NCBI GenBank assembly: GCA_016187465.1
Contig: JACPJQ010000004.1
Span: forward strand, 104,861-168,860
From: Candidatus Woesearchaeota archaeon
GTDB taxonomy: Archaea; Nanobdellota; Nanobdellia; Woesearchaeales; GW2011-AR4
Length of the DNA: 64,000 nt
Direction of reading: 5' to 3'
The translations under genes and the position numbers were made by a program. The notes beneath the pieces were generated by a model. It was not told where the DNA came from and made no database searches. It saw only the letters and a program-made list of their open reading frames with translations. Each line of letters begins with the position of its first letter. The stretch's first letter is position 1. Below are positions 14,702 through 64,000 of this stretch, piece by piece.

Positions 14702-17152
14702 ATGCAAAAGAGATTAAAAAAGGTGATCAAAGTCAGGAAATCTCTGTCTTTATTGATAATTGTTTTGATGATTCTTAGTAATCTTGTTTTTGCGCAGTAT
14801 CCTGGCTCATATGAAGGCAAGCCAATAGAAAGCTCAGGCGAAGGTTCTGAATACTATTACGAAGGCGATGTTGTCGTTTACCCATCTAAAGGTCCAGGCT
14901 CTAAAGAAGAGCAGATGATGGAGCGCTTTATGAAGGGCAACATCGGGGAAGATGAAATGCGCGCGATGGCAAAGGCCAAGCAAGGTGACAGATTTAACGA
15001 AATGGAGTTTCAGAAAGGAATGCTGGAACTTAAGGGGAGGATGCAAAGAAAAGAGGCGTTTTCTTATGAAAATGAAGCCTTTCAGGGTAAACATGACATA
15101 GGCCCTTCATACGAAGGCTATTCCAAAGAGCAGATGGTGTTTGGCATGATTTTTGAGCATATTGGCGGTGATATTGACCCAAGGGAGATAAAGCAGTACT
15201 GCAATGAACCAGACAAAATTGCTGATATGTTAATAACTAAATTAAGAGAAAAGGTGGGCGACTTGCAGAATATCTGCAGCAGGGCTGAAGAGAATGAAGC
15301 AAGATGCGCTGAAATGGCAAAGAAGGGCTGCTCACAAATAGGAATTCCTTTTGTCAGGGAAGATGCAACTGAAATGGAGAAGATACAGTCAGTGGCATAC
15401 TCATGCCCGGTAAATAAGGACGCGATAGTCCAGGCTTGCAAGCTAAGGGCTAAGTTTAATATGGAGCAGAGAATTCAGCATGTTGCGGAATCATGCGAAA
15501 AAAGATTTGATTTAGAAGGAGACTGGTTAGTCAGGGAATGTGAAAAATTTAAGCAATACCAGACTTGCGACAGGGAAAGATTCATGAGTCAGTGCATGGG
15601 CGGGATTAAAAAAGAAAATTTTGAAAAGCCATGCCCAGAATATCCCATCCCTTCCTGCGGTGAAAATCAAAAGCTTAGGGATAAAAAAGACGCAAGAGGG
15701 TGTACTCTCTATTATTGTGAAACCATTGCAGCGAATGAGTGTCCTACTGCTTCTGCTCCCCAATGCGCCGAAGGATCTGCATTGCAAAAGAAAGTTGATG
15801 ATAAAGGCTGCGTTTACTATTACTGCTCAGAGCCAAAATGCCCTGAAGTTTCAAAGCCAATGTGCAATAATGATGAAAGATTGGAAGCTTATTTTGATAA
15901 TGCAGGATGTGCGGCAAGCTACCAATGCATAAAACGGCAAACATGCCCGGAAGTTGCAAAGCCAACTTGCGGTGAAGGCGCGAGCTTAACAACAAAATAT
16001 GACGATAAAGGCTGCATTGTGGGCTACGAGTGCATAAGCATAACAACAAATGAGTCACTTACCTCAATTACGGGCGGCGCTGTGTTAAACACTTACAATG
16101 ACTTCATGATGCACTGCGAGAATTCCTGGAAAGAGCAGGAAAGGATTTGCTCAAATATGGAAGGCAGATGCGACCAGAGCGCGTTTATCGAGAGGTGCAA
16201 GCAGCAGGAAAAGAAAAATTATGATGATTTTGTGTCAAAAATTGACCGGCATTGCGAAACTGAGACAGCATCTCAAATAAGCGCTGCTGAGCAAAGATGC
16301 AGCAGGCTGGGTGAAGAGAGGCAGCGCTGCCTAGAGCAAAGCACAAAAAGATGCGAGCAAATGAAGGGAATTGCGCAGCAATGCAAGGATTTATTGACGG
16401 AAGAAAACTTAAGGAGATTCATAGTGGAGGAGGCAAAGAAAAGGTGCAAGTTCAGCAATATAATCCAAGATGAAGAGGGTGTAAGAAAGGCAGACAAGGT
16501 GGAGATTATTCTGGCGGTTTTAAACACGGCAACTGAAGATGACCTGCAAAAATTAGGGCTTTTTGTTGACGGCTTTCATGAAGAATTAAAACTTCAGGAC
16601 ACAACTGTTTACAAAGGCACTATTGATCCAAACAGGTTTGGCGATGTTAAACTATTGCCGTTTGTGGTAAATGCAAAGATAAGCCCTGTTGCGGGCTCTG
16701 AAAGGTCAAAAGAGGTCAAAACAAAAATCATCGCAAGGCAAAGAGTGGAAGAATCTGCAGGCAAGCTTGCTTCATTAAGGGATTCTGATTTGTCCGACGA
16801 ATACATTTACATTATTGAGGATAAAGCAAGCGACGTTCTTAATGTCTCAGATAGCCTGGAAGACATAGAAAAAAAAGAAGAACAGAAGGGGATTGGCTAT
16901 AAAATAAGATTGTTCTTGGGCTTGGCAAAGAAGGCTGAGCAGATGGAAATCAGCCAATTAACCGACGGCAAAGAAAAATTAAAAAATTCAATTGAAGCAT
17001 TAACAAGCCTTATTGAGGAAGTGCCAAGCGATATTGCAAAAGCTGTCTTGAAAGAACAAGTTGAAAACTTGAAGAAACAGCAGGAAGACATAGAAGTTCT
17101 AATTGAGGTCAAAGAAAAGAAGGCAAAGGGCTTGTTTGGTATATTTGGATAA
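14702..17152 (+). CDS. large secreted Cys-rich protein with four tandem ~32-aa CPx4PxC...GCxxxYxC modules and a C-terminal coiled-coil region
   Basis: N-terminal signal/anchor; repeated module between 15632 and 16033; many additional Cys pairs. Confidence 0.6.
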   Translation: MQKRLKKVIKVRKSLSLLIIVLMILSNLVFAQYPGSYEGKPIESSGEGSEYYYEGDVVVYPSKGPGSKEEQMMERFMKGNIGEDEMRAMAKAKQGDRFNEMEFQKGMLELKGRMQRKEAFSYENEAFQGKHDIGPSYEGYSKEQMVFGMIFEHIGGDIDPREIKQYCNEPDKIADMLITKLREKVGDLQNICSRAEENEARCAEMAKKGCSQIGIPFVREDATEMEKIQSVAYSCPVNKDAIVQACKLRAKFNMEQRIQHVAESCEKRFDLEGDWLVRECEKFKQYQTCDRERFMSQCMGGIKKENFEKPCPEYPIPSCGENQKLRDKKDARGCTLYYCETIAANECPTASAPQCAEGSALQKKVDDKGCVYYYCSEPKCPEVSKPMCNNDERLEAYFDNAGCAASYQCIKRQTCPEVAKPTCGEGASLTTKYDDKGCIVGYECISITTNESLTSITGGAVLNTYNDFMMHCENSWKEQERICSNMEGRCDQSAFIERCKQQEKKNYDDFVSKIDRHCETETASQISAAEQRCSRLGEERQRCLEQSTKRCEQMKGIAQQCKDLLTEENLRRFIVEEAKKRCKFSNIIQDEEGVRKADKVEIILAVLNTATEDDLQKLGLFVDGFHEELKLQDTTVYKGTIDPNRFGDVKLLPFVVNAKISPVAGSERSKEVKTKIIARQRVEESAGKLASLRDSDLSDEYIYIIEDKASDVLNVSDSLEDIEKKEEQKGIGYKIRLFLGLAKKAEQMEISQLTDGKEKLKNSIEALTSLIEEVPSDIAKAVLKEQVENLKKQQEDIEVLIEVKEKKAKGLFGIFG
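15632..16033 (+). repeat. 4x tandem in-frame repeat encoding Cys-rich modules inside 14702..17152
   Basis: CPEYPIPSC..GCTLYYC / CPTASAPQC..GCVYYYC / CPEVSKPMC..GCAASYQC / CPEVAKPTC..GCIVGYEC. Confidence 0.6.
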
Positions 17153-45390: not shown

Positions 45391-47790
45391 ATGGCAGAAA
45401 ATGAGGAGCCGAGCACAAAATTTGCGAAGCATATTGAAATAAAAATAACGCGCAAAAATAAAATCAAAAAAAGAGGTGAAGAAATAATGGCACTGTTCGG
45501 CGAGGTAAAAAAGCCCTTTACTTATGACGTTTTGAGGGAGGGCGAGGAGATAATACTCATGATTGACATGGAGCAATACCCGCATATACCCTCTCTTGAG
45601 GATGATCCTGTCTGCATGTCACGCACAATGGACATTCTTGCAGAAGCCGGAACTGTCACAAAAATCATCTATTCGCAAAAAAGGAACTATGAGTATGACT
45701 ACAGCCAGACCTCAATGATTCAGGAAATTGCATATCTCTATATGCAGCTGACAAAAAGAAGGGATGTATTCAGCTACGGCAACCTGCTTGCTGACCCGAA
45801 ATGCACAAAATGGGCAGCCCAGTGGTATGCAAACATACAGAATATCACAGCCGATTTGCTGAAAAGAGACCCAATAGGGGCATATGTCGAGTTAAAAAGG
45901 ACTGTCAGGGATGAAAGGATAAACATAGACAGGACTCTTGACCAAACTTATATACAATCCGCTCAAAAATACATTTCTATTCTGCAGTATTTAATGAGCT
46001 TGATGGAAAAAACCAGGCTCATTTCAGCAGCAAGGCAGTATCTGCCGGGATATAAGATGGGAGACCGAACCGTATACAGAAGAATATTCACTCCCGATAT
46101 AAGGCCCGACTTCATGTTCACGAAACTGATGGCGACTTTTCCGCCTGAAGGCGAGGAGATTGACAATTACCAAATCGATAAGAACACAGAAGTCACCATA
46201 TTTGAGCTGCCGGACAACGTGCAGTACCTTTACCATTTAATGCCGCCCGAATTCAAGCTAAGCGAGGAGAAATACGAGATTCTTGACACAGCAAGGAAGA
46301 TAATGGCAGAGCACAAGCCCACAAGGCAGGAGTTCATAGATCCTGAGAGGATGCGCCAGGTTTTCTACAACATAGGTTCTGACTTGATTGACGAGCTGAT
46401 TAACTACAGAAATCTAAGGTTTTCATCTGCAGAAGTGGACGAAATGACAAAAATTTTGGTCAGGTACACTGTAGGCTTTGGCCTCATAGAGGTGCTTTTG
46501 CAGGATGAAAAGGTTCAAGACATTACAATAAACTCACCGCTTGGCGAGATACCTATGTTCATAGTGCATCAGGACTATGCAGACTGCAAAACCAACATAA
46601 TCCCTACCGTGCCCGAATCAGAGTCATGGGCCTCCAAGCTCAGGCTTCTGTCAGGAAGGCCATTGGATGAAGCAAACCCCATTTTAGATACAGAACTCAG
46701 CATTCCAGGGGCGAATTCCAGAATTGCTGTTGTTGCTCCCCCTTTAAATCCAAGCGGCTTGGCATTCTCTTTCAGAAGGCATCGCGACAAGCCATGGACT
46801 CTGCCTTTGTTCATAAAAAACAAAATGATGAACCCATTAGCAGCTGGCATTCTGAGTTTCCTGATAGACGGCTCAAGATCAATGCTTATTGCAGGAACAA
46901 GAAGCGCCGGAAAAACCAGCCTGCTTGGAGCGGTGCTGGTGGAGCTAATGAGAAAGTATCGTGTAATCACAATAGAGGACACTTTGGAACTTCCCACAGG
47001 CTCATTGAGAAAGCTTGGCTACAACATTCAGTCAATGAAAGTAGCTGCTGCACTGACAAAAGGAACAAGCGAAGTTCCTGCAGACGAGGGCATAAGGACA
47101 ACATTAAGGATGGGAGATTCTGCCTTGATTATTGGGGAGATAAGGAGCAAGGAGGCATTGGCTTTGTACGAAGCAATGAGGGTTGGAGCATTGGCTAATG
47201 TAGTTGCAGGCACCATACACGGAGATTCACCTTACGGGGTGTTTGACAGGGTTGTAAATGACTTGCAGGTCCCAAGAACAAGCTTCAAGGCTACCGATGT
47301 TATAGTTGTAGCAAATCCTGTCAGAAGCGCTGATGGACTGCATCGCTGGAGAAGGATAACCCAAATAACAGAAGTAAGAAAGCACTGGGAGCAGGACCCA
47401 TTAGTCGAGAAAGGCTTCGTCGATCTTATGAGGTATGACTCAAAAAAAGACGTTTTAGAGCCAAGCGAGGAGCTGATTAATGGCGACTCTGAAATTCTTA
47501 AAGCGATTGCCGGCAATGTCAAAGAGTGGGCAGGCAACTGGGACGATGTCTGGGATAACATAACCTTAAGGGCAAAAATAAAAGAAACATTGGTCGATTT
47601 TGCTGCAAAGCAAAATATGCCAGGGCTCCTTGAAGCAGACTTTGTGATACAAAGCAACGACCAGTTTCACAAGATATCTGAAAGAATAAGGGACGAGATA
47701 GGAACTCTTGACTCAAAGAGGATACTCTTCGACTGGAGCGAGTGGCTGAAAAGGCACGTCAAGAAAATGGATTTTCACAGCAAACTATAA
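45391..47790 (+). CDS. FlaI/ArlI-PilB-like type IV pilus/archaellum assembly ATPase with long N-terminal extension
   Basis: Walker A AGTRSAGKTS, Asp/His boxes, TadA/VirB11-like body. Confidence 0.85.
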   Translation: MAENEEPSTKFAKHIEIKITRKNKIKKRGEEIMALFGEVKKPFTYDVLREGEEIILMIDMEQYPHIPSLEDDPVCMSRTMDILAEAGTVTKIIYSQKRNYEYDYSQTSMIQEIAYLYMQLTKRRDVFSYGNLLADPKCTKWAAQWYANIQNITADLLKRDPIGAYVELKRTVRDERINIDRTLDQTYIQSAQKYISILQYLMSLMEKTRLISAARQYLPGYKMGDRTVYRRIFTPDIRPDFMFTKLMATFPPEGEEIDNYQIDKNTEVTIFELPDNVQYLYHLMPPEFKLSEEKYEILDTARKIMAEHKPTRQEFIDPERMRQVFYNIGSDLIDELINYRNLRFSSAEVDEMTKILVRYTVGFGLIEVLLQDEKVQDITINSPLGEIPMFIVHQDYADCKTNIIPTVPESESWASKLRLLSGRPLDEANPILDTELSIPGANSRIAVVAPPLNPSGLAFSFRRHRDKPWTLPLFIKNKMMNPLAAGILSFLIDGSRSMLIAGTRSAGKTSLLGAVLVELMRKYRVITIEDTLELPTGSLRKLGYNIQSMKVAAALTKGTSEVPADEGIRTTLRMGDSALIIGEIRSKEALALYEAMRVGALANVVAGTIHGDSPYGVFDRVVNDLQVPRTSFKATDVIVVANPVRSADGLHRWRRITQITEVRKHWEQDPLVEKGFVDLMRYDSKKDVLEPSEELINGDSEILKAIAGNVKEWAGNWDDVWDNITLRAKIKETLVDFAAKQNMPGLLEADFVIQSNDQFHKISERIRDEIGTLDSKRILFDWSEWLKRHVKKMDFHSKL

Positions 47791-47994: not shown

Positions 47995-50181
47995 ATGCCG
48001 CCTGAATTAGACAAGCAAAAACTGTTGTCTTTGATGGAGATTTACAAGAGGCATTTAGAGAGAGAGCTGGGCGCCAAGCTTGAGCCGCAGTCTTCTGCTC
48101 CGACAACAAAGGAATACCAGGAATTCAAGGCAGAATTCCTTCCGCGGCACATGACTTTATACGAGAAATTGTGCAACCTTAGCGAAAAAATTCTCAAAAT
48201 AAAGCCCGATCAGAAAAAGGCAGAGGCTTTGCAGGAAGCAATTGACATAACCCACCTCAACATTACACCTGCAGGAGCAGTTTCATTTTCATTCTTGATT
48301 CCATTACTTGCGGCAGTATTCGGCTCATTGTTCGCTTTTCTGGTTTTCAATTCCATGTTTTTTGTTTTATTGTTTATTGTGGGCACTCTTTGCATGATAA
48401 GACCCCTCGGAAAGGCGCCTGAATTCATTGCAAACAACTGGCGCCTCAAGGCAAGCAACCAGATGGTGCTGTGCATCTTCTATACTGTCACTTATATGAG
48501 GCACACATCTAACATTGAGAATGCGCTTGAATTTGCGTCGCAGCACCTCTCCCCGCCATTATCATTAGACCTTAAAAAAGTGCTTTGGGATGTAGAAACT
48601 GAAAAATATTCTTCTGTGAAAGAGTCCCTTGACATGTATCTTGAGACATGGAAAAAATGGAATATCGAGTTTATTGAATCGTTTCACTTGATTGAAAGCT
48701 CTTTGTATGAGGGAGAAGAATCAAGAAGATTAAACGCGCTTGACAAGTCTCTTGATGTTATACTTGATGAGACATACGAAAAAATGCTGCATTACGCCCA
48801 CAACCTCCAAAACCCGATTACAATGCTCCACATGCTTGGAATCATTTTGCCAATCTTGGGGCTTGTGATACTGCCATTGGTTGTAAGCTTTATGGAAAAT
48901 GTGCGGTGGTATCATCTGGCTGTCATATATAATGTAATACTCACTGTTGTCGTTTATTACCTTGGAAAAAATATTCTTTCAAGAAGGCCGACAGGCTACG
49001 GTGACACAGATATTTCTGAGGAAAATCCTGAGCTCAAGAAATACCGCAATATACTGATAAGAATAGGAAAAAATGAATTTCAGATGACTCCCGCCATCAT
49101 AAGCGTGTTTATTGGAGTAATCTTTTTCCTGATAGGGCTGAGCCCTTTGATATTTCACGCACTTGGGATTCCTGATTTTGGATTTGGAGGAGAGGATGTG
49201 TCATCAAGCTGCGGCCAGAGATATTGCTTCCTTGAGTACAGGCTAAGCTCAACAACTAACCAGGAAATTGGACCTTATGGATTAGGGGCGGCAGTCGCAA
49301 GCCTGTTCATACCATTGAGCTTTGGAGTGGCAATAGGCTTGTATTACGGCCTAAAATCCAAGAATATTATCAAGATAAGGGAAAAGGCAAAGCAGCTTGA
49401 GTTGGAGTTTGCAAGCGCCTTATTCCAGCTTGGAAATCGCTTGGGCGACAACATACCAATAGAGATTGCTGTAGGCAAGGTGGCAAGCGTCATGGAAGGC
49501 ACTGTTTCAGGAAGCTTCTTCCAGCTGGTAAGCATGAACATAAGAAGACTAGGGATGAACATCGATAAAGCAATATTTGACCCTCAGCACGGCGCTCTTG
49601 TGTCATTTCCCAGCAACCTGATTGAAAGCTCGATGAAGGTCCTTACGCAGGCAATCAAAAAAGGGCCTTTGATTGCTGCGCAGGCATTGACGAACGTCTC
49701 AAGGTATATAAAAGAGATACATAAGGTTAATGAAAGGCTGAAGGACTTAATGGCTGATGTTATCTCGTCCATGCGATCCCAAATCAAGTTTTTAACTCCT
49801 GCCATTGCCGGAGTTGTTATTGGCATTACTTCCATGATAACTTCCATTCTTGGAAAATTAAGCGCCCAATTGCAGCAAGTCACCTCTTCTGTTGCAGGCT
49901 CGGATGCGGCAGCACCGACCGGAATCCTGGGATTGTTTGGGGATGGCATACCCACATATTATTTCCAGCTTATTGTTGGCATCTATGTTGTGCAGATCAC
50001 CTTTATCCTGACAGTGATTGCAAACGGGGTTGAAAACGGCTCTGACAAATTAAGCGAAAGGTATCTGCTGGGCACAAACTTGATAAGGAGCACGATAATT
50101 TATGTTTTCATATCAGGAGCGGTTATGCTGATGTTCAACATAATCGCGGGAAGAATTCTAACTGCTACACTAAGCGCTTGA
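47995..50181 (+). CDS. FlaJ/TadC-like polytopic membrane platform protein
   Basis: 728 aa, multiple TM bundles separated by cytoplasmic domains, adjacent to the FlaI-like ATPase. Confidence 0.65.
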   Translation: MPPELDKQKLLSLMEIYKRHLERELGAKLEPQSSAPTTKEYQEFKAEFLPRHMTLYEKLCNLSEKILKIKPDQKKAEALQEAIDITHLNITPAGAVSFSFLIPLLAAVFGSLFAFLVFNSMFFVLLFIVGTLCMIRPLGKAPEFIANNWRLKASNQMVLCIFYTVTYMRHTSNIENALEFASQHLSPPLSLDLKKVLWDVETEKYSSVKESLDMYLETWKKWNIEFIESFHLIESSLYEGEESRRLNALDKSLDVILDETYEKMLHYAHNLQNPITMLHMLGIILPILGLVILPLVVSFMENVRWYHLAVIYNVILTVVVYYLGKNILSRRPTGYGDTDISEENPELKKYRNILIRIGKNEFQMTPAIISVFIGVIFFLIGLSPLIFHALGIPDFGFGGEDVSSSCGQRYCFLEYRLSSTTNQEIGPYGLGAAVASLFIPLSFGVAIGLYYGLKSKNIIKIREKAKQLELEFASALFQLGNRLGDNIPIEIAVGKVASVMEGTVSGSFFQLVSMNIRRLGMNIDKAIFDPQHGALVSFPSNLIESSMKVLTQAIKKGPLIAAQALTNVSRYIKEIHKVNERLKDLMADVISSMRSQIKFLTPAIAGVVIGITSMITSILGKLSAQLQQVTSSVAGSDAAAPTGILGLFGDGIPTYYFQLIVGIYVVQITFILTVIANGVENGSDKLSERYLLGTNLIRSTIIYVFISGAVMLMFNIIAGRILTATLSA

Positions 50182-61417: not shown

Positions 61418-62233
61418 ATGTTAAAAAGAGGCGATCACCTGTCTTTCCCGTATTCAAAAGGCCAAGTGGCAATATTCTTCATAATCGGGCTGATAATCTT
61501 GGCAAGCTTCATAATACTAAGCACTGCCAAGAAGGAAAATGCGTCAAAACTGGATGAAGGCATTTCCACTGTTGAAACAGGGCAGGTAGACGACGTAAAT
61601 CTAAGGTCTTTCGTGCAGTTCTGCGTTGACTCTGTTGCAAAAAACGCTGTTTTCTACCTTGGATTTGTTGGCGGAAAGCTGCAAAAGGATTTTTTCCCGA
61701 AATTTTACATTGTAGATGCCAACTACAGAATCCCTTACTTCTATTATAAAGGGGGCTCAAACATGCCCAGTCGGGACGGATTTAGAAATCTCATACTGGC
61801 AAAGTACATGAACGAGAATTTGAGAAAATGCACAAACAACTTCAAGGCCTTTGAAAGCACAAGGATAATTGACTCAAGTTCAAGGACAAATGTTTTGCTT
61901 ACTGATGAAGAAATCATCTTTAATGTCACTTATCCGGTCAGCATTAACAGGGGCTTGCATATTAAGAATCTTGACCAGGCATATTCTACTGAAGTCAAGG
62001 CAAGACTAAAGGAAATCTTGGAGATTGCCCAAACCATTGTCAATTATGAACTCATAAACGACAGGTACATCCATTGGGATTATCTAACGGACATGAGCAA
62101 CAGGAACTACAATATAACAGCATATACTCAGGAAGACAACACAATCCTTTACAGAATCATTGACTTGGAGAATGAGATTGACAGAGAAAAATACATTTTC
62201 CAGTTTGCGAATAAGATAAAAGTGAAAGAATGA
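61418..62233 (+). CDS. secreted/anchored hypothetical protein
   Basis: N-terminal TM anchor; 271 aa. Confidence 0.35.
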   Translation: MLKRGDHLSFPYSKGQVAIFFIIGLIILASFIILSTAKKENASKLDEGISTVETGQVDDVNLRSFVQFCVDSVAKNAVFYLGFVGGKLQKDFFPKFYIVDANYRIPYFYYKGGSNMPSRDGFRNLILAKYMNENLRKCTNNFKAFESTRIIDSSSRTNVLLTDEEIIFNVTYPVSINRGLHIKNLDQAYSTEVKARLKEILEIAQTIVNYELINDRYIHWDYLTDMSNRNYNITAYTQEDNTILYRIIDLENEIDREKYIFQFANKIKVKE

Positions 62234-63087: not shown

Positions 63088-63166
63088 TATATATATAAAC
63101 CTTTCGCCTGCAAACAATAAATAAGTTCATTAACGATTGAGCATTAAATAAAAAATGAAAAAGAAA
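63088..63166 (+). promoter_or_regulatory. promoter-5' module, copy 2 (with 12-nt and 11-nt insertions)
   Basis: same tatatataaacctttcgcc..aaacaataa / acgattga / aaaatgaaaaag blocks upstream of ATG 63155. Confidence 0.5.
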
Positions 63167-64000
63167 ATTTTATTCGGCTTGATGCTGGTGATGGGGTTTG
63201 TATTGGGATTAATAAATGTTCAGGCCGTGCTTGTTCCACCTTGTGGTCCTAGCTTGCCACCTCCATGGTGCCAAACTGCAATTAATTGTGGTGCAAAAGA
63301 ATGTACAGCAGTATATGAAGCAATAGATGCGCCGGCTAGTGCTCTATGCCACACGGATTATGATGTTCTATGCCCAATACCAGAACCTGACGGATTTTGC
63401 AGTCCCTATAATCCATTTTGGGTATGTCAAGGTACGACTGCAAAAGGTGCAAGTTGTGATACAGCTACGTGTACACTAATATGCCAAACTGGTGCTGCGT
63501 ATGTTTACAAAGGAATTGAGGCAACAGCAGAATCAACTGCCACTGCATTTTACACCAGTCTTAAAGCAGCCGGTTTTTTTGGAGATATTGTGCCTTGTGG
63601 TGAAATAGATAGTTGTATGGAAGAAGTACCAGTAAGTGCTCTGCAAAGTTATAACAGGCTCACTTGCGAAGGCATAAAACAATCCACTCTCGTAAGAATA
63701 TTTGGAGATCCTGCAGTAAATAAGGCACTATTGGAGCAAGTCTTGCCTGAAATAGCAACAAGACCAGAAGTTTTAGATGCCCTGAAATCAACAGGCTATC
63801 AATTTGTAAGCCCGGAGCAGCTTGCAAAGTTTATCAATGATTGTGGATTTGAATGTGGAACAAATACATTAGAAGCTGTTGTCAATCAACAAAAGTTGAG
63901 TGTTTTGGCAAATAAAGCTGTTGACGCGGCAAGAGCAGCTTACGGTATTGAACTTTCAACCGCAAACGAAATGGGCGTGACAGCTTTAAAATTATACAAT
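63155..64000 (+). CDS. secreted Cys-rich protein (partial, runs off the window end)
   Basis: signal peptide MKKKILFGLMLVMGFVLGLINVQA then many Cys; no stop before window end. Confidence 0.5.
   Translation, partial: MKKKILFGLMLVMGFVLGLINVQAVLVPPCGPSLPPPWCQTAINCGAKECTAVYEAIDAPASALCHTDYDVLCPIPEPDGFCSPYNPFWVCQGTTAKGASCDTATCTLICQTGAAYVYKGIEATAESTATAFYTSLKAAGFFGDIVPCGEIDSCMEEVPVSALQSYNRLTCEGIKQSTLVRIFGDPAVNKALLEQVLPEIATRPEVLDALKSTGYQFVSPEQLAKFINDCGFECGTNTLEAVVNQQKLSVLANKAVDAARAAYGIELSTANEMGVTALKLYN

Follow-up and report, generated by a model that had tools for sequence, protein, structure and literature searches.

A 64,000-nucleotide (nt) stretch of a Candidatus Woesearchaeota contig (JACPJQ010000004.1, positions 104,861 to 168,860; hereafter the window) carries on its forward strand a gene for a large cysteine-rich protein with the marks of export, which is the subject of this analysis. 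The open reading frame (ORF) of 816 amino acids (aa) is present as an earlier note on this DNA had described it. Its product is acidic (pI 5.2) and 100% identical to P0001, 'hypothetical protein HYW20_05100 [Candidatus Woesearchaeota archaeon]', from a Candidatus Woesearchaeota metagenome-assembled genome (MAG). The source is a member of the DPANN archaea, which agrees with the small-genome archaeon guessed at in the earlier note. The annotated ATG at 14702 adds 7 residues not present in homologs, while a GTG at 14723 aligns with the start of the family. Because the homologs begin with M/V-IKVKK, this GTG is likely to be the true start of the gene, giving a protein of 809 aa. The TATA-like box that precedes it suggests that the gene has its own promoter, with a leaderless mRNA, inside the short gap that follows the upstream PCMT gene. 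The features of the gene are as follows.

14702..17152, forward strand: whole ORF, 816 aa, coordinates including the stop codon
14690..14699, forward strand: TATA-like box TTAAATATAA, read from the sequence, in the 18-nt gap 3′ of the PCMT gene and ~25 nt upstream of GTG 14723
14702..14794, forward strand: signal peptide (aa 1-31), with a basic n-region, a 17-aa h-region and a V-F-A/Q cleavage-type site (the slash marks the predicted cleavage point)
14795..14986, forward strand: variable N-terminal region of the mature protein (aa 32-95), identity 0.42, with indels and a predicted local distance difference test score (pLDDT) partly below 50
14987..15631, forward strand: helical Cys domain A (aa 96-310), 10 Cys in helices; AlphaFold helices 100-307, pLDDT 82-94
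15632..15718, forward strand: Cys module 1 (aa 311-339), 34.1 bits with a hidden Markov model (HMM) of the module built from homologs only; β-hairpin in the model
15740..15826, forward strand: Cys module 2 (aa 347-375), 49.4 bits with the same HMM; β-hairpin in the model
15839..15928, forward strand: Cys module 3 (aa 380-409), 31.5 bits with the same HMM; β-hairpin in the model
15944..16033, forward strand: Cys module 4 (aa 415-444), 47.6 bits with the same HMM; β-hairpin in the model
16094..16456, forward strand: helical Cys domain B (aa 465-585), 10 Cys; helices 465-585, pLDDT ~90
16493..16687, forward strand: ferredoxin-like β-α-β-β-α-β domain (aa ~598-662), from the secondary structure of the AlphaFold model
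16688..17110, forward strand: helical charged tail (aa 663-803), including a KGxGYKxxLFLGLA motif
16931-17065, forward strand: heptad segment within the tail (aa 744-788), a/d score 7 of 8
17111..17149, forward strand: C-terminal peptide KEKKAKGLFGIFG (aa 804-816), a basic cluster followed by G-hydrophobic-hydrophobic-G-hydrophobic-hydrophobic-G (KKAKGLFGIFG)

The centre of the protein is built from four tandem Cys-rich modules spanning nt 15632..16033, exactly where the earlier note had placed them, each of 29-30 aa. Every module contains four Cys with the spacing C-x7-C-x14-C-x4/5-C, and the consensus is CP-x4-P-x-C-x2-G-x2-L-x2-K-x-D-x2-GC-x2-YY-C. Ten positions (C1, P2, P7, C9, L15, D20, G23, C24, Y28 and C29) are invariant in all four copies. 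The motif written earlier fails as a regular expression, because it places an extra residue between [KY] and D. The homolog-only HMM recognizes the modules of the window protein with i-E values of 5e-9 to 1e-14 and matches no other ORF of the 64-kb window; 500 composition-preserving shuffles of the module region used as a control reached at most 7 bits. No DNA-level tandem repeat is found in the module region, and the module duplications must therefore be old. When the module region was modelled alone, four successive hairpin units were obtained with a pLDDT of 92.9. The best Foldseek match of this model was not significant (E = 0.12, probability 0.25, TM-score 0.14-0.22). The top neighbours, likewise non-significant, were VWF-C4, NELL2, the integrin PSI domain, TNFR cysteine-rich domains (CRDs) and follistatin. 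These weak neighbours are all elongated extracellular disulfide ladders, and the resemblance of the predicted model to them would be one of architecture only.

The N-terminal leader is the sole hydrophobic segment of the protein, no other Kyte-Doolittle window exceeding 1.0. It is composed of the basic stretch KKVIKVRK, the hydrophobic stretch SLSLLIIVLMILSNLVF and the site V-F-A/Q, cleavage being assigned by rule from the n-/h-region and small-residue pattern. The features of a Sec/signal peptidase I (SPase I)-type leader are all found in the window protein: n-region, h-region, small residues at -3/-1 and no further transmembrane (TM) segment. The consensus LSNIAFA/Q is kept among homologs. 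Across the superfamily, a small-x-small site is found in 107 of 109 leaders and a basic n-region in 100 of 109, despite sequence divergence. The Sec leader of the window protein is thus predicted to be cleaved at VFA/Q. The signal announced in the earlier note is a canonical Sec/SPase I-type leader conserved across the superfamily, and this evidence speaks against the possibility, also raised there, that the protein is not exported.

The remaining domains were delineated on an AlphaFold2 model of the window protein computed from a 78-sequence alignment (mean pLDDT 77.8, predicted template modelling score (pTM) 0.46). The cysteines of domain A are invariant throughout the family and their motif is retained in distant relatives; those of domain B are invariant as well, distant relatives included. 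The two domains have a weak C-x9-C-x7-C helical motif in common (BLASTP E=0.001; hhalign probability 47%), which is only suggestive of an ancient internal duplication. Foldseek searches with the full model returned only local matches, to the ferredoxin-like domain (ACT, NikR-C, Lrp RAM and subtilisin prodomain), with probabilities of 0.9-1.0 but E values of at least 0.09. The C-terminal region had been described as a long charged coiled coil. It is indeed helical and charged, but strong heptad periodicity is confined to aa ~744-788, and the AlphaFold model contains four helices of ~30 residues each (663-693, 699-728, 743-773 and 777-808) rather than one long coil. This tail is the part most widely shared in the superfamily (profile positions 730-851). 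In the C-terminal peptide, K804, K806, K807, G810, G813, F815 and G816 are invariant or nearly so, and the peptide may bind membrane.

Comparison of relatives indicates which of these parts are exchangeable. Close relatives of the window protein (n=78; 45-73% full-length identity, 750-1040 aa) all come from sources labelled Woesearchaeota or Nanoarchaeota MAG. Identity to the window protein is highest in the ferredoxin-like domain (0.72), the most conserved region, and in the tail (0.70), followed by domain A (0.60), domain B (0.56) and the modules (0.51); the module region also holds all the large indels. Searches gave 245 sequences, 123 of which contain both domain A and the tail and were used as full-length relatives for counts. 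Modules are present in 1-7 copies in 77 of these 123 proteins and absent from the other 46, where the linker is 22-378 aa long and P/Q/T/G-rich, acidic, or made of other Cys modules. In P0228 and P0114, for instance, the same architecture is found with a ~150-aa P/Q/T linker in place of the modules. The ferredoxin-like domain is kept in 98 of the 123 relatives. A G-[ILF]-[FLW]-[SG]-[ILF]-[FL] motif, usually preceded by basic residues, occurs within the last 25 aa of 94 of them, including Aenigmarchaeota-type proteins. The modules are the least constrained part of the protein. Since they vary in copy number and are replaced by other linkers, a spacer fits better than a recognition element, and the modules are most likely a spacer and not the functional heart of the protein.

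The spacer of many members also accommodates a second, 26-aa four-Cys module (C-x2-DAK-x-CPDGS-x-V-x-R-x4-C-x-F-x2-C; type B), which is carried by P0136, P0177, P0218, P0087, P0229 and P0232. The window protein has no copy of it. In some proteins Pfam gives it a Kazal-like score (P0087, E=5e-7; P0229 and P0232, precomputed). It is also arrayed in other proteins, including P0176 and P0202 from the diatom Seminavis robusta. The diatom matches were discarded as relatives of the window modules, as only the type-B module is involved. The window-type (type-A) module is itself found in tandem arrays of unrelated secreted proteins, with CAP and META domains as partners. P0181 (L039 8001-10772) combines at least 9 type-A modules with a CAP domain, on a contig with a bacterial S10-L3-L4-L23-L2 operon and LysM and LD-carboxypeptidase genes; the gene for P0169 (L040 8001-12668), which contains an array of type-A modules, adjoins FtsE/FtsX. 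These two contigs probably belong to bacteria of the Candidate Phyla Radiation (CPR) type, because one family of CAP domains is reported to be almost confined to CPR bacteria (bioRxiv 10.1101/335083). The distribution suggests that the type-A module is common to DPANN archaea and CPR-like bacteria, and it does not appear to be archaea-specific.

The window protein contains 36 cysteines, not the more than 40 counted earlier, and every one of them lies within aa 167-582. No CxxC occurs anywhere in the protein, the closest Cys-Cys spacing being C-x4-C. The number of Cys is even in 69 of 73 full-length members. Moreover, in one relative only, P0102 (1220 aa), a thioredoxin-like domain is fused at the N-terminal side (residues 173-243; PF13098, E=4e-7). 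This fusion may be a Rosetta-stone hint tying the family to extracytoplasmic thiol-disulfide chemistry. The even Cys counts, the lack of CxxC, the conservation of the leader, the thioredoxin fusion and the extracellular partner domains (Kazal, CAP, META) all argue for extracytoplasmic disulfides. The most economical reading of these patterns is that of an extracytoplasmic, fully disulfide-bonded protein. Sec export and an extracytoplasmic location of the window protein are well supported, if indirectly.

An exhaustive profile search of 1.84 billion representatives returned 483 proteins at E<=1e-3 and 163 at E<=1e-10, with a Candidatus Aenigmarchaeota protein within one distant cluster of the matches. 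The profile search with the diverse alignment A3 was dominated by the close family, and no named protein was matched when the acidic relative P0146 served as query. A scan of one genome per species retrieved 31 loci, all in Woesearchaeota/Nanoarchaeota-type MAGs. The family is apparently single-copy. In MAG ARS106 (NZDH01; L022, L023) two copies of the gene are found, each with a DEAD-box helicase gene downstream; they more likely reflect two strains in one bin than true paralogs. Several records titled 'uncultured Methanosarcinales archaeon' (binchicken MAGs) encode a Woesearchaeota-type protein (L004, L005, L009, L011, L014-L016, L019, L020, L027, L030 and L032), and in several of them, such as L004, L005, L011, L020 and L030, the same PCMT/DEAD-box synteny is seen. 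The name 'Methanosarcinales' in these titles is apparently a placeholder or a wrong label. The genomes of some relatives encode a fuller biosynthesis, with a shikimate pathway beside the gene.

The closer relatives share the gene order FeS-assembly-P / PCMT / gene / DEAD-box helicase, which is not found in distant ones. This conserved synteny points to vertical inheritance within one clade of Woesearchaeota, inside a wider DPANN superfamily. PCMT lies immediately upstream in 15 of 32 loci. A functional operon with PCMT was nevertheless rejected: PCMT is no longer adjacent in distant relatives, the pair is interrupted in L002, and a separate TATA-like box precedes the gene. Two other neighbourhoods were recorded among relatives. 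In the P0228/P0114 lineage (L037 10409-11350, L038 10400-11341), a conserved 313-aa protein starts 2 nt after the family gene. It has several N-terminal hydrophobic segments and no Pfam match, is not found beside the window gene, and is a possible membrane partner in that lineage. The distant member P0129 (L035 970-11806) is flanked on the same strand by signal-peptide proteins of 1663 and 1382 aa, the first of which ends in a PGF-CTERM-like sequence (VPGIGFLEIGLLVIFSLGAILLL). L035 looks like a surface-protein gene cluster, and as such lends some contextual support to a surface role.

Elsewhere in the window, the ORF at 63155-64000 (forward strand), which runs past the window end, has the leader MKKKILFGLMLVMGFVLGLINVQA and many Cys in its first ~110 residues. 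A second secreted Cys-rich protein had been announced at 63155, and a signal-peptide-bearing Cys-rich ORF does exist there; it has no Pfam match and no type-A module, and is unrelated to the protein of 14702..17152. The N-terminus of the 271-aa product of ORF 61418-62233 (forward strand), which has no Pfam match, resembles an archaeal class III (type IV pilin-like) signal (…SKGQVAIFFIIGLIILASFIIL). ORF 45391-47790 (forward strand) encodes a 799-aa type II/IV secretion-family ATPase (PF00437, E=6e-14), and the next ORF, 47995-50181 (forward strand), a 728-aa protein with no Pfam match. Together these two ORFs could form a locus for the assembly of a type IV pilus- or archaellum-like structure.

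The window protein could not be assigned to a known family. Pfam (E<=10) returned no Cys-repeat family for it and NCBIfam none either, and Pfam (E<=0.01) found no Cys-repeat family in 34 members. Searches of the PDB by sequence gave no match with the single sequence, the family profile or the module profile. Matches to Retrotrans_gag, DUF761 and PKD_4 (one member) obtained with Pfam, NCBIfam and PHROGs were treated as noise. A clamp-loader lid domain match in P0078 was attributed to a chimeric or miscalled gene and not used. The best PHROGs match of the window protein (E = 0.081) identified no viral family; together with the conserved chromosomal synteny, this argues that the gene is not phage-derived. 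The earlier statement that the module matches no nameable domain holds for Pfam, NCBIfam, PDB sequences and, as regards significant matches, Foldseek, and no well-known domain with an established intracellular role was found in its place. The four-Cys module appears to be new. Finally, no description of the family was found in the literature on cysteine-rich surface proteins of DPANN archaea and Woesearchaeota.

The reading that we favour, to which we give about an even chance of being correct, is that of an exported, disulfide-stabilized, modular 'stalk' protein of the envelope whose modules serve as a rigid spacer. Cleavage of the Sec leader at VFA/Q would leave a mature, acidic chain of ~89 kDa on the outer side of the membrane. 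All 36 Cys would be paired, 20 of them stapling the two helical domains and 16 forming two disulfides per β-hairpin module. The four modules would then constitute a rigid rod that sets the distance between the parts of the chain on either side of it. Domain A, together with the variable N-terminus, would stand at the exposed, distal end; nearer the cell would be domain B and, after it in the chain, the ferredoxin-like domain and the tail. These last two may oligomerize or bind an invariant partner. The basic cluster with the GLFGIFG peptide at the very end could serve as a short amphipathic anchor to the cell's own membrane, lying on its outer face. The comparison shows the architecture, the pattern of conservation and the exchangeability of the spacer, and the spacer role of the modules follows from it; cleavage, disulfide pairing, orientation, anchoring and any host-contact role are inferred.

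Several observations weigh against this reading. A full-length identity of 50-70% is unusually high for a host-contact protein, and the window protein has only 2 N-glycosylation sequons, in which it differs from many archaeal surface glycoproteins. A sequence scan found no TM helix, lipobox or sortase/archaeosortase signal in the window protein, so that its attachment to the cell is only putative and it could be released. The inter-domain arrangement is uncertain in the full model (pTM 0.46).

The protein could instead be a housekeeping extracytoplasmic scaffold or chaperone, working between the membrane and an outer layer, for example in envelope assembly or oxidative folding, and not exposed as an adhesin; its helical domains, ferredoxin-like domain and tail would bind conserved partners of the cell itself. 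This alternative is unlikely. The non-module parts are very highly conserved, the position of the gene is syntenic and core-genome-like, and sequons are few. The thioredoxin-like fusion and the presence of a ferredoxin-like domain point the same way, such domains of the ACT/RAM/prodomain type being typically ligand-binding or oligomerizing. However, the protein has neither a catalytic motif nor a CxxC, and none of the known chaperone or foldase families matches it. In a chaperone, a spacer that is rigid or long and variable would be difficult to explain, and the thioredoxin domain occurs in one relative only.

The conserved C-terminal peptide, which the stalk model places on the cell's own membrane, could instead be directed at a host. 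In that case the peptide and the tail of the secreted protein would insert into the membrane of the host, where they would act as a tether, form a pore or assist fusion, while the opposite end remained with the symbiont. Cultivated DPANN members are episymbionts. Short Gly-rich peptides that insert into membranes are known from the MinD targeting sequence and from the N-terminus of influenza HA2 (GLFGAIAGF), which the GLFGIFG end resembles. Conservation of the basic cluster and peptide across DPANN lineages and the long helical/heptad region of the tail are compatible with this role. Against it, there is no significant similarity to fusion or pore-forming proteins, no second anchor that would keep the protein on the symbiont, and the peptide, with its seven hydrophobic or small residues, is not long enough to cross a membrane; moreover, the relatives encoded beside a shikimate pathway are not obviously obligate symbionts. 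We consider such an effector distinctly unlikely. A broader version, about as improbable if not slightly more so, would be a DPANN-wide cell-cell contact device: a secreted rod whose C-terminal peptide and tail insert into a lipid membrane, either that of the host or bridging symbiont and host, and whose interchangeable spacer, be it a rod of Cys modules, Kazal-like modules or a P/T/Q linker, is tuned to the envelope gap of each symbiont-host pair. If this were true, the sharing of the module with CPR-like bacteria would point to an exchange of surface-building blocks between two radiations of ultra-small cells.

The size and acidity of the protein (pI 5.2), its export, conservation and apparently single-copy gene also invite the idea that it forms the S-layer lattice of these Woesearchaeota or its stalk subunit. 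The order of its elements recalls SlaB, and a distant relative lies beside giant surface proteins. The predicted fold is, however, mostly α-helical, without β-sandwich or Ig-like domains and without a C-terminal TM helix; there are 2 sequons only, and no known S-layer family is matched in Pfam or NCBIfam. An S-layer role is therefore doubtful. Last, an intracellular or membrane-anchored metal-binding protein, with Zn or Fe-S bound by the Cys and the N-terminal segment kept as an uncleaved anchor, is highly improbable: small Cys-rich domains of archaeal 'dark' proteins have often been proposed as metal binders (PMC13607799) and an FeS-assembly-P-type gene lies in the upstream neighbourhood, but CxxC/CPxC knuckles are absent (minimum C-x4-C), Cys parity is even in 69/73, the SPase-type site is conserved, the Cys lie along helices in stapling positions in the model, and the Kazal-type and P/T-rich linkers and CAP/META module partners are extracellular features.

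DPANN archaea such as Woesearchaeota are abundant, almost wholly uncultured and thought to depend on contact with other cells, and to our knowledge very few of their surface proteins carry any annotation. The family described here appears to be uncharacterized yet widespread in DPANN. It defines a conserved, putatively exported superfamily with a clear domain plan, an apparently new four-Cys spacer module and a conserved C-terminal signature resembling a membrane peptide. The window protein is a reasonable but unproven cell-surface candidate, and the superfamily is a candidate and HMM-definable marker for studying envelope building or attachment. If it proved to be merely a structural envelope protein, the value of the result would lie mainly in annotation: several hundred 'hypothetical' proteins would gain a family definition, and a domain family would be added to those known.

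Comparison with known systems places the stalk reading in context. A C-terminal signature on an archaeal exported protein is reminiscent of PGF-CTERM/archaeosortase substrates. However, the window protein ends ...KEKKAKGLFGIFG, without a PGF motif, a C-terminal TM helix or trailing basic residues, a PGF-CTERM-like end being seen only in the neighbour of a distant relative. SlaB, the S-layer stalk of Sulfolobales, consists of β-sandwich domains, a long coiled coil and a true C-terminal TM helix. The succession of Sec signal, extracellular domains, α-helical or coiled-coil segment and C-terminal attachment element is similar in the window protein, but here the domains are helical and Cys-stapled or Cys hairpins, the heptad segment is limited to 45 aa, and a 7-residue hydrophobic/Gly peptide stands in place of the TM helix; no sequence or fold match to SlaB was found. 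The C-terminal targeting sequence of Escherichia coli MinD (...KGFLKRLFGG) is amphipathic and acts on the cytoplasmic face. The likeness to KKAKGLFGIFG is one of pattern only, both chains ending in a group of basic residues and then a short stretch rich in G, L and F; the proteins are unrelated in sequence and fold, and the peptide would here lie outside the cell.

The modules differ from the well-known Cys-rich domains. No HMM match to EGF-like, TNFR CRD or VWC domains is obtained, and these contain 6 (EGF, TNFR CRD) or 10 (VWC) Cys against four per module here. Kazal domains (PF00050/PF07648) have no match in the window protein, only the different insert module of some homologs qualifying. 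Zinc ribbons and zinc knuckles are set apart by their paired CxxC or CPxC, the smallest Cys-Cys distance here being 5 residues. The eukaryote-type disulfide ladders, with their patterns of 6-10 Cys, are thus unlike the window modules in detail. TNFR CRD, VWF C, integrin PSI/I-EGF and follistatin domains are small, disulfide-held β-hairpin units arranged in tandem in extracellular rods, as is proposed for the ~30-aa window modules, and it is this broad class of modular, disulfide-stabilized extracellular rod proteins that the window protein resembles.

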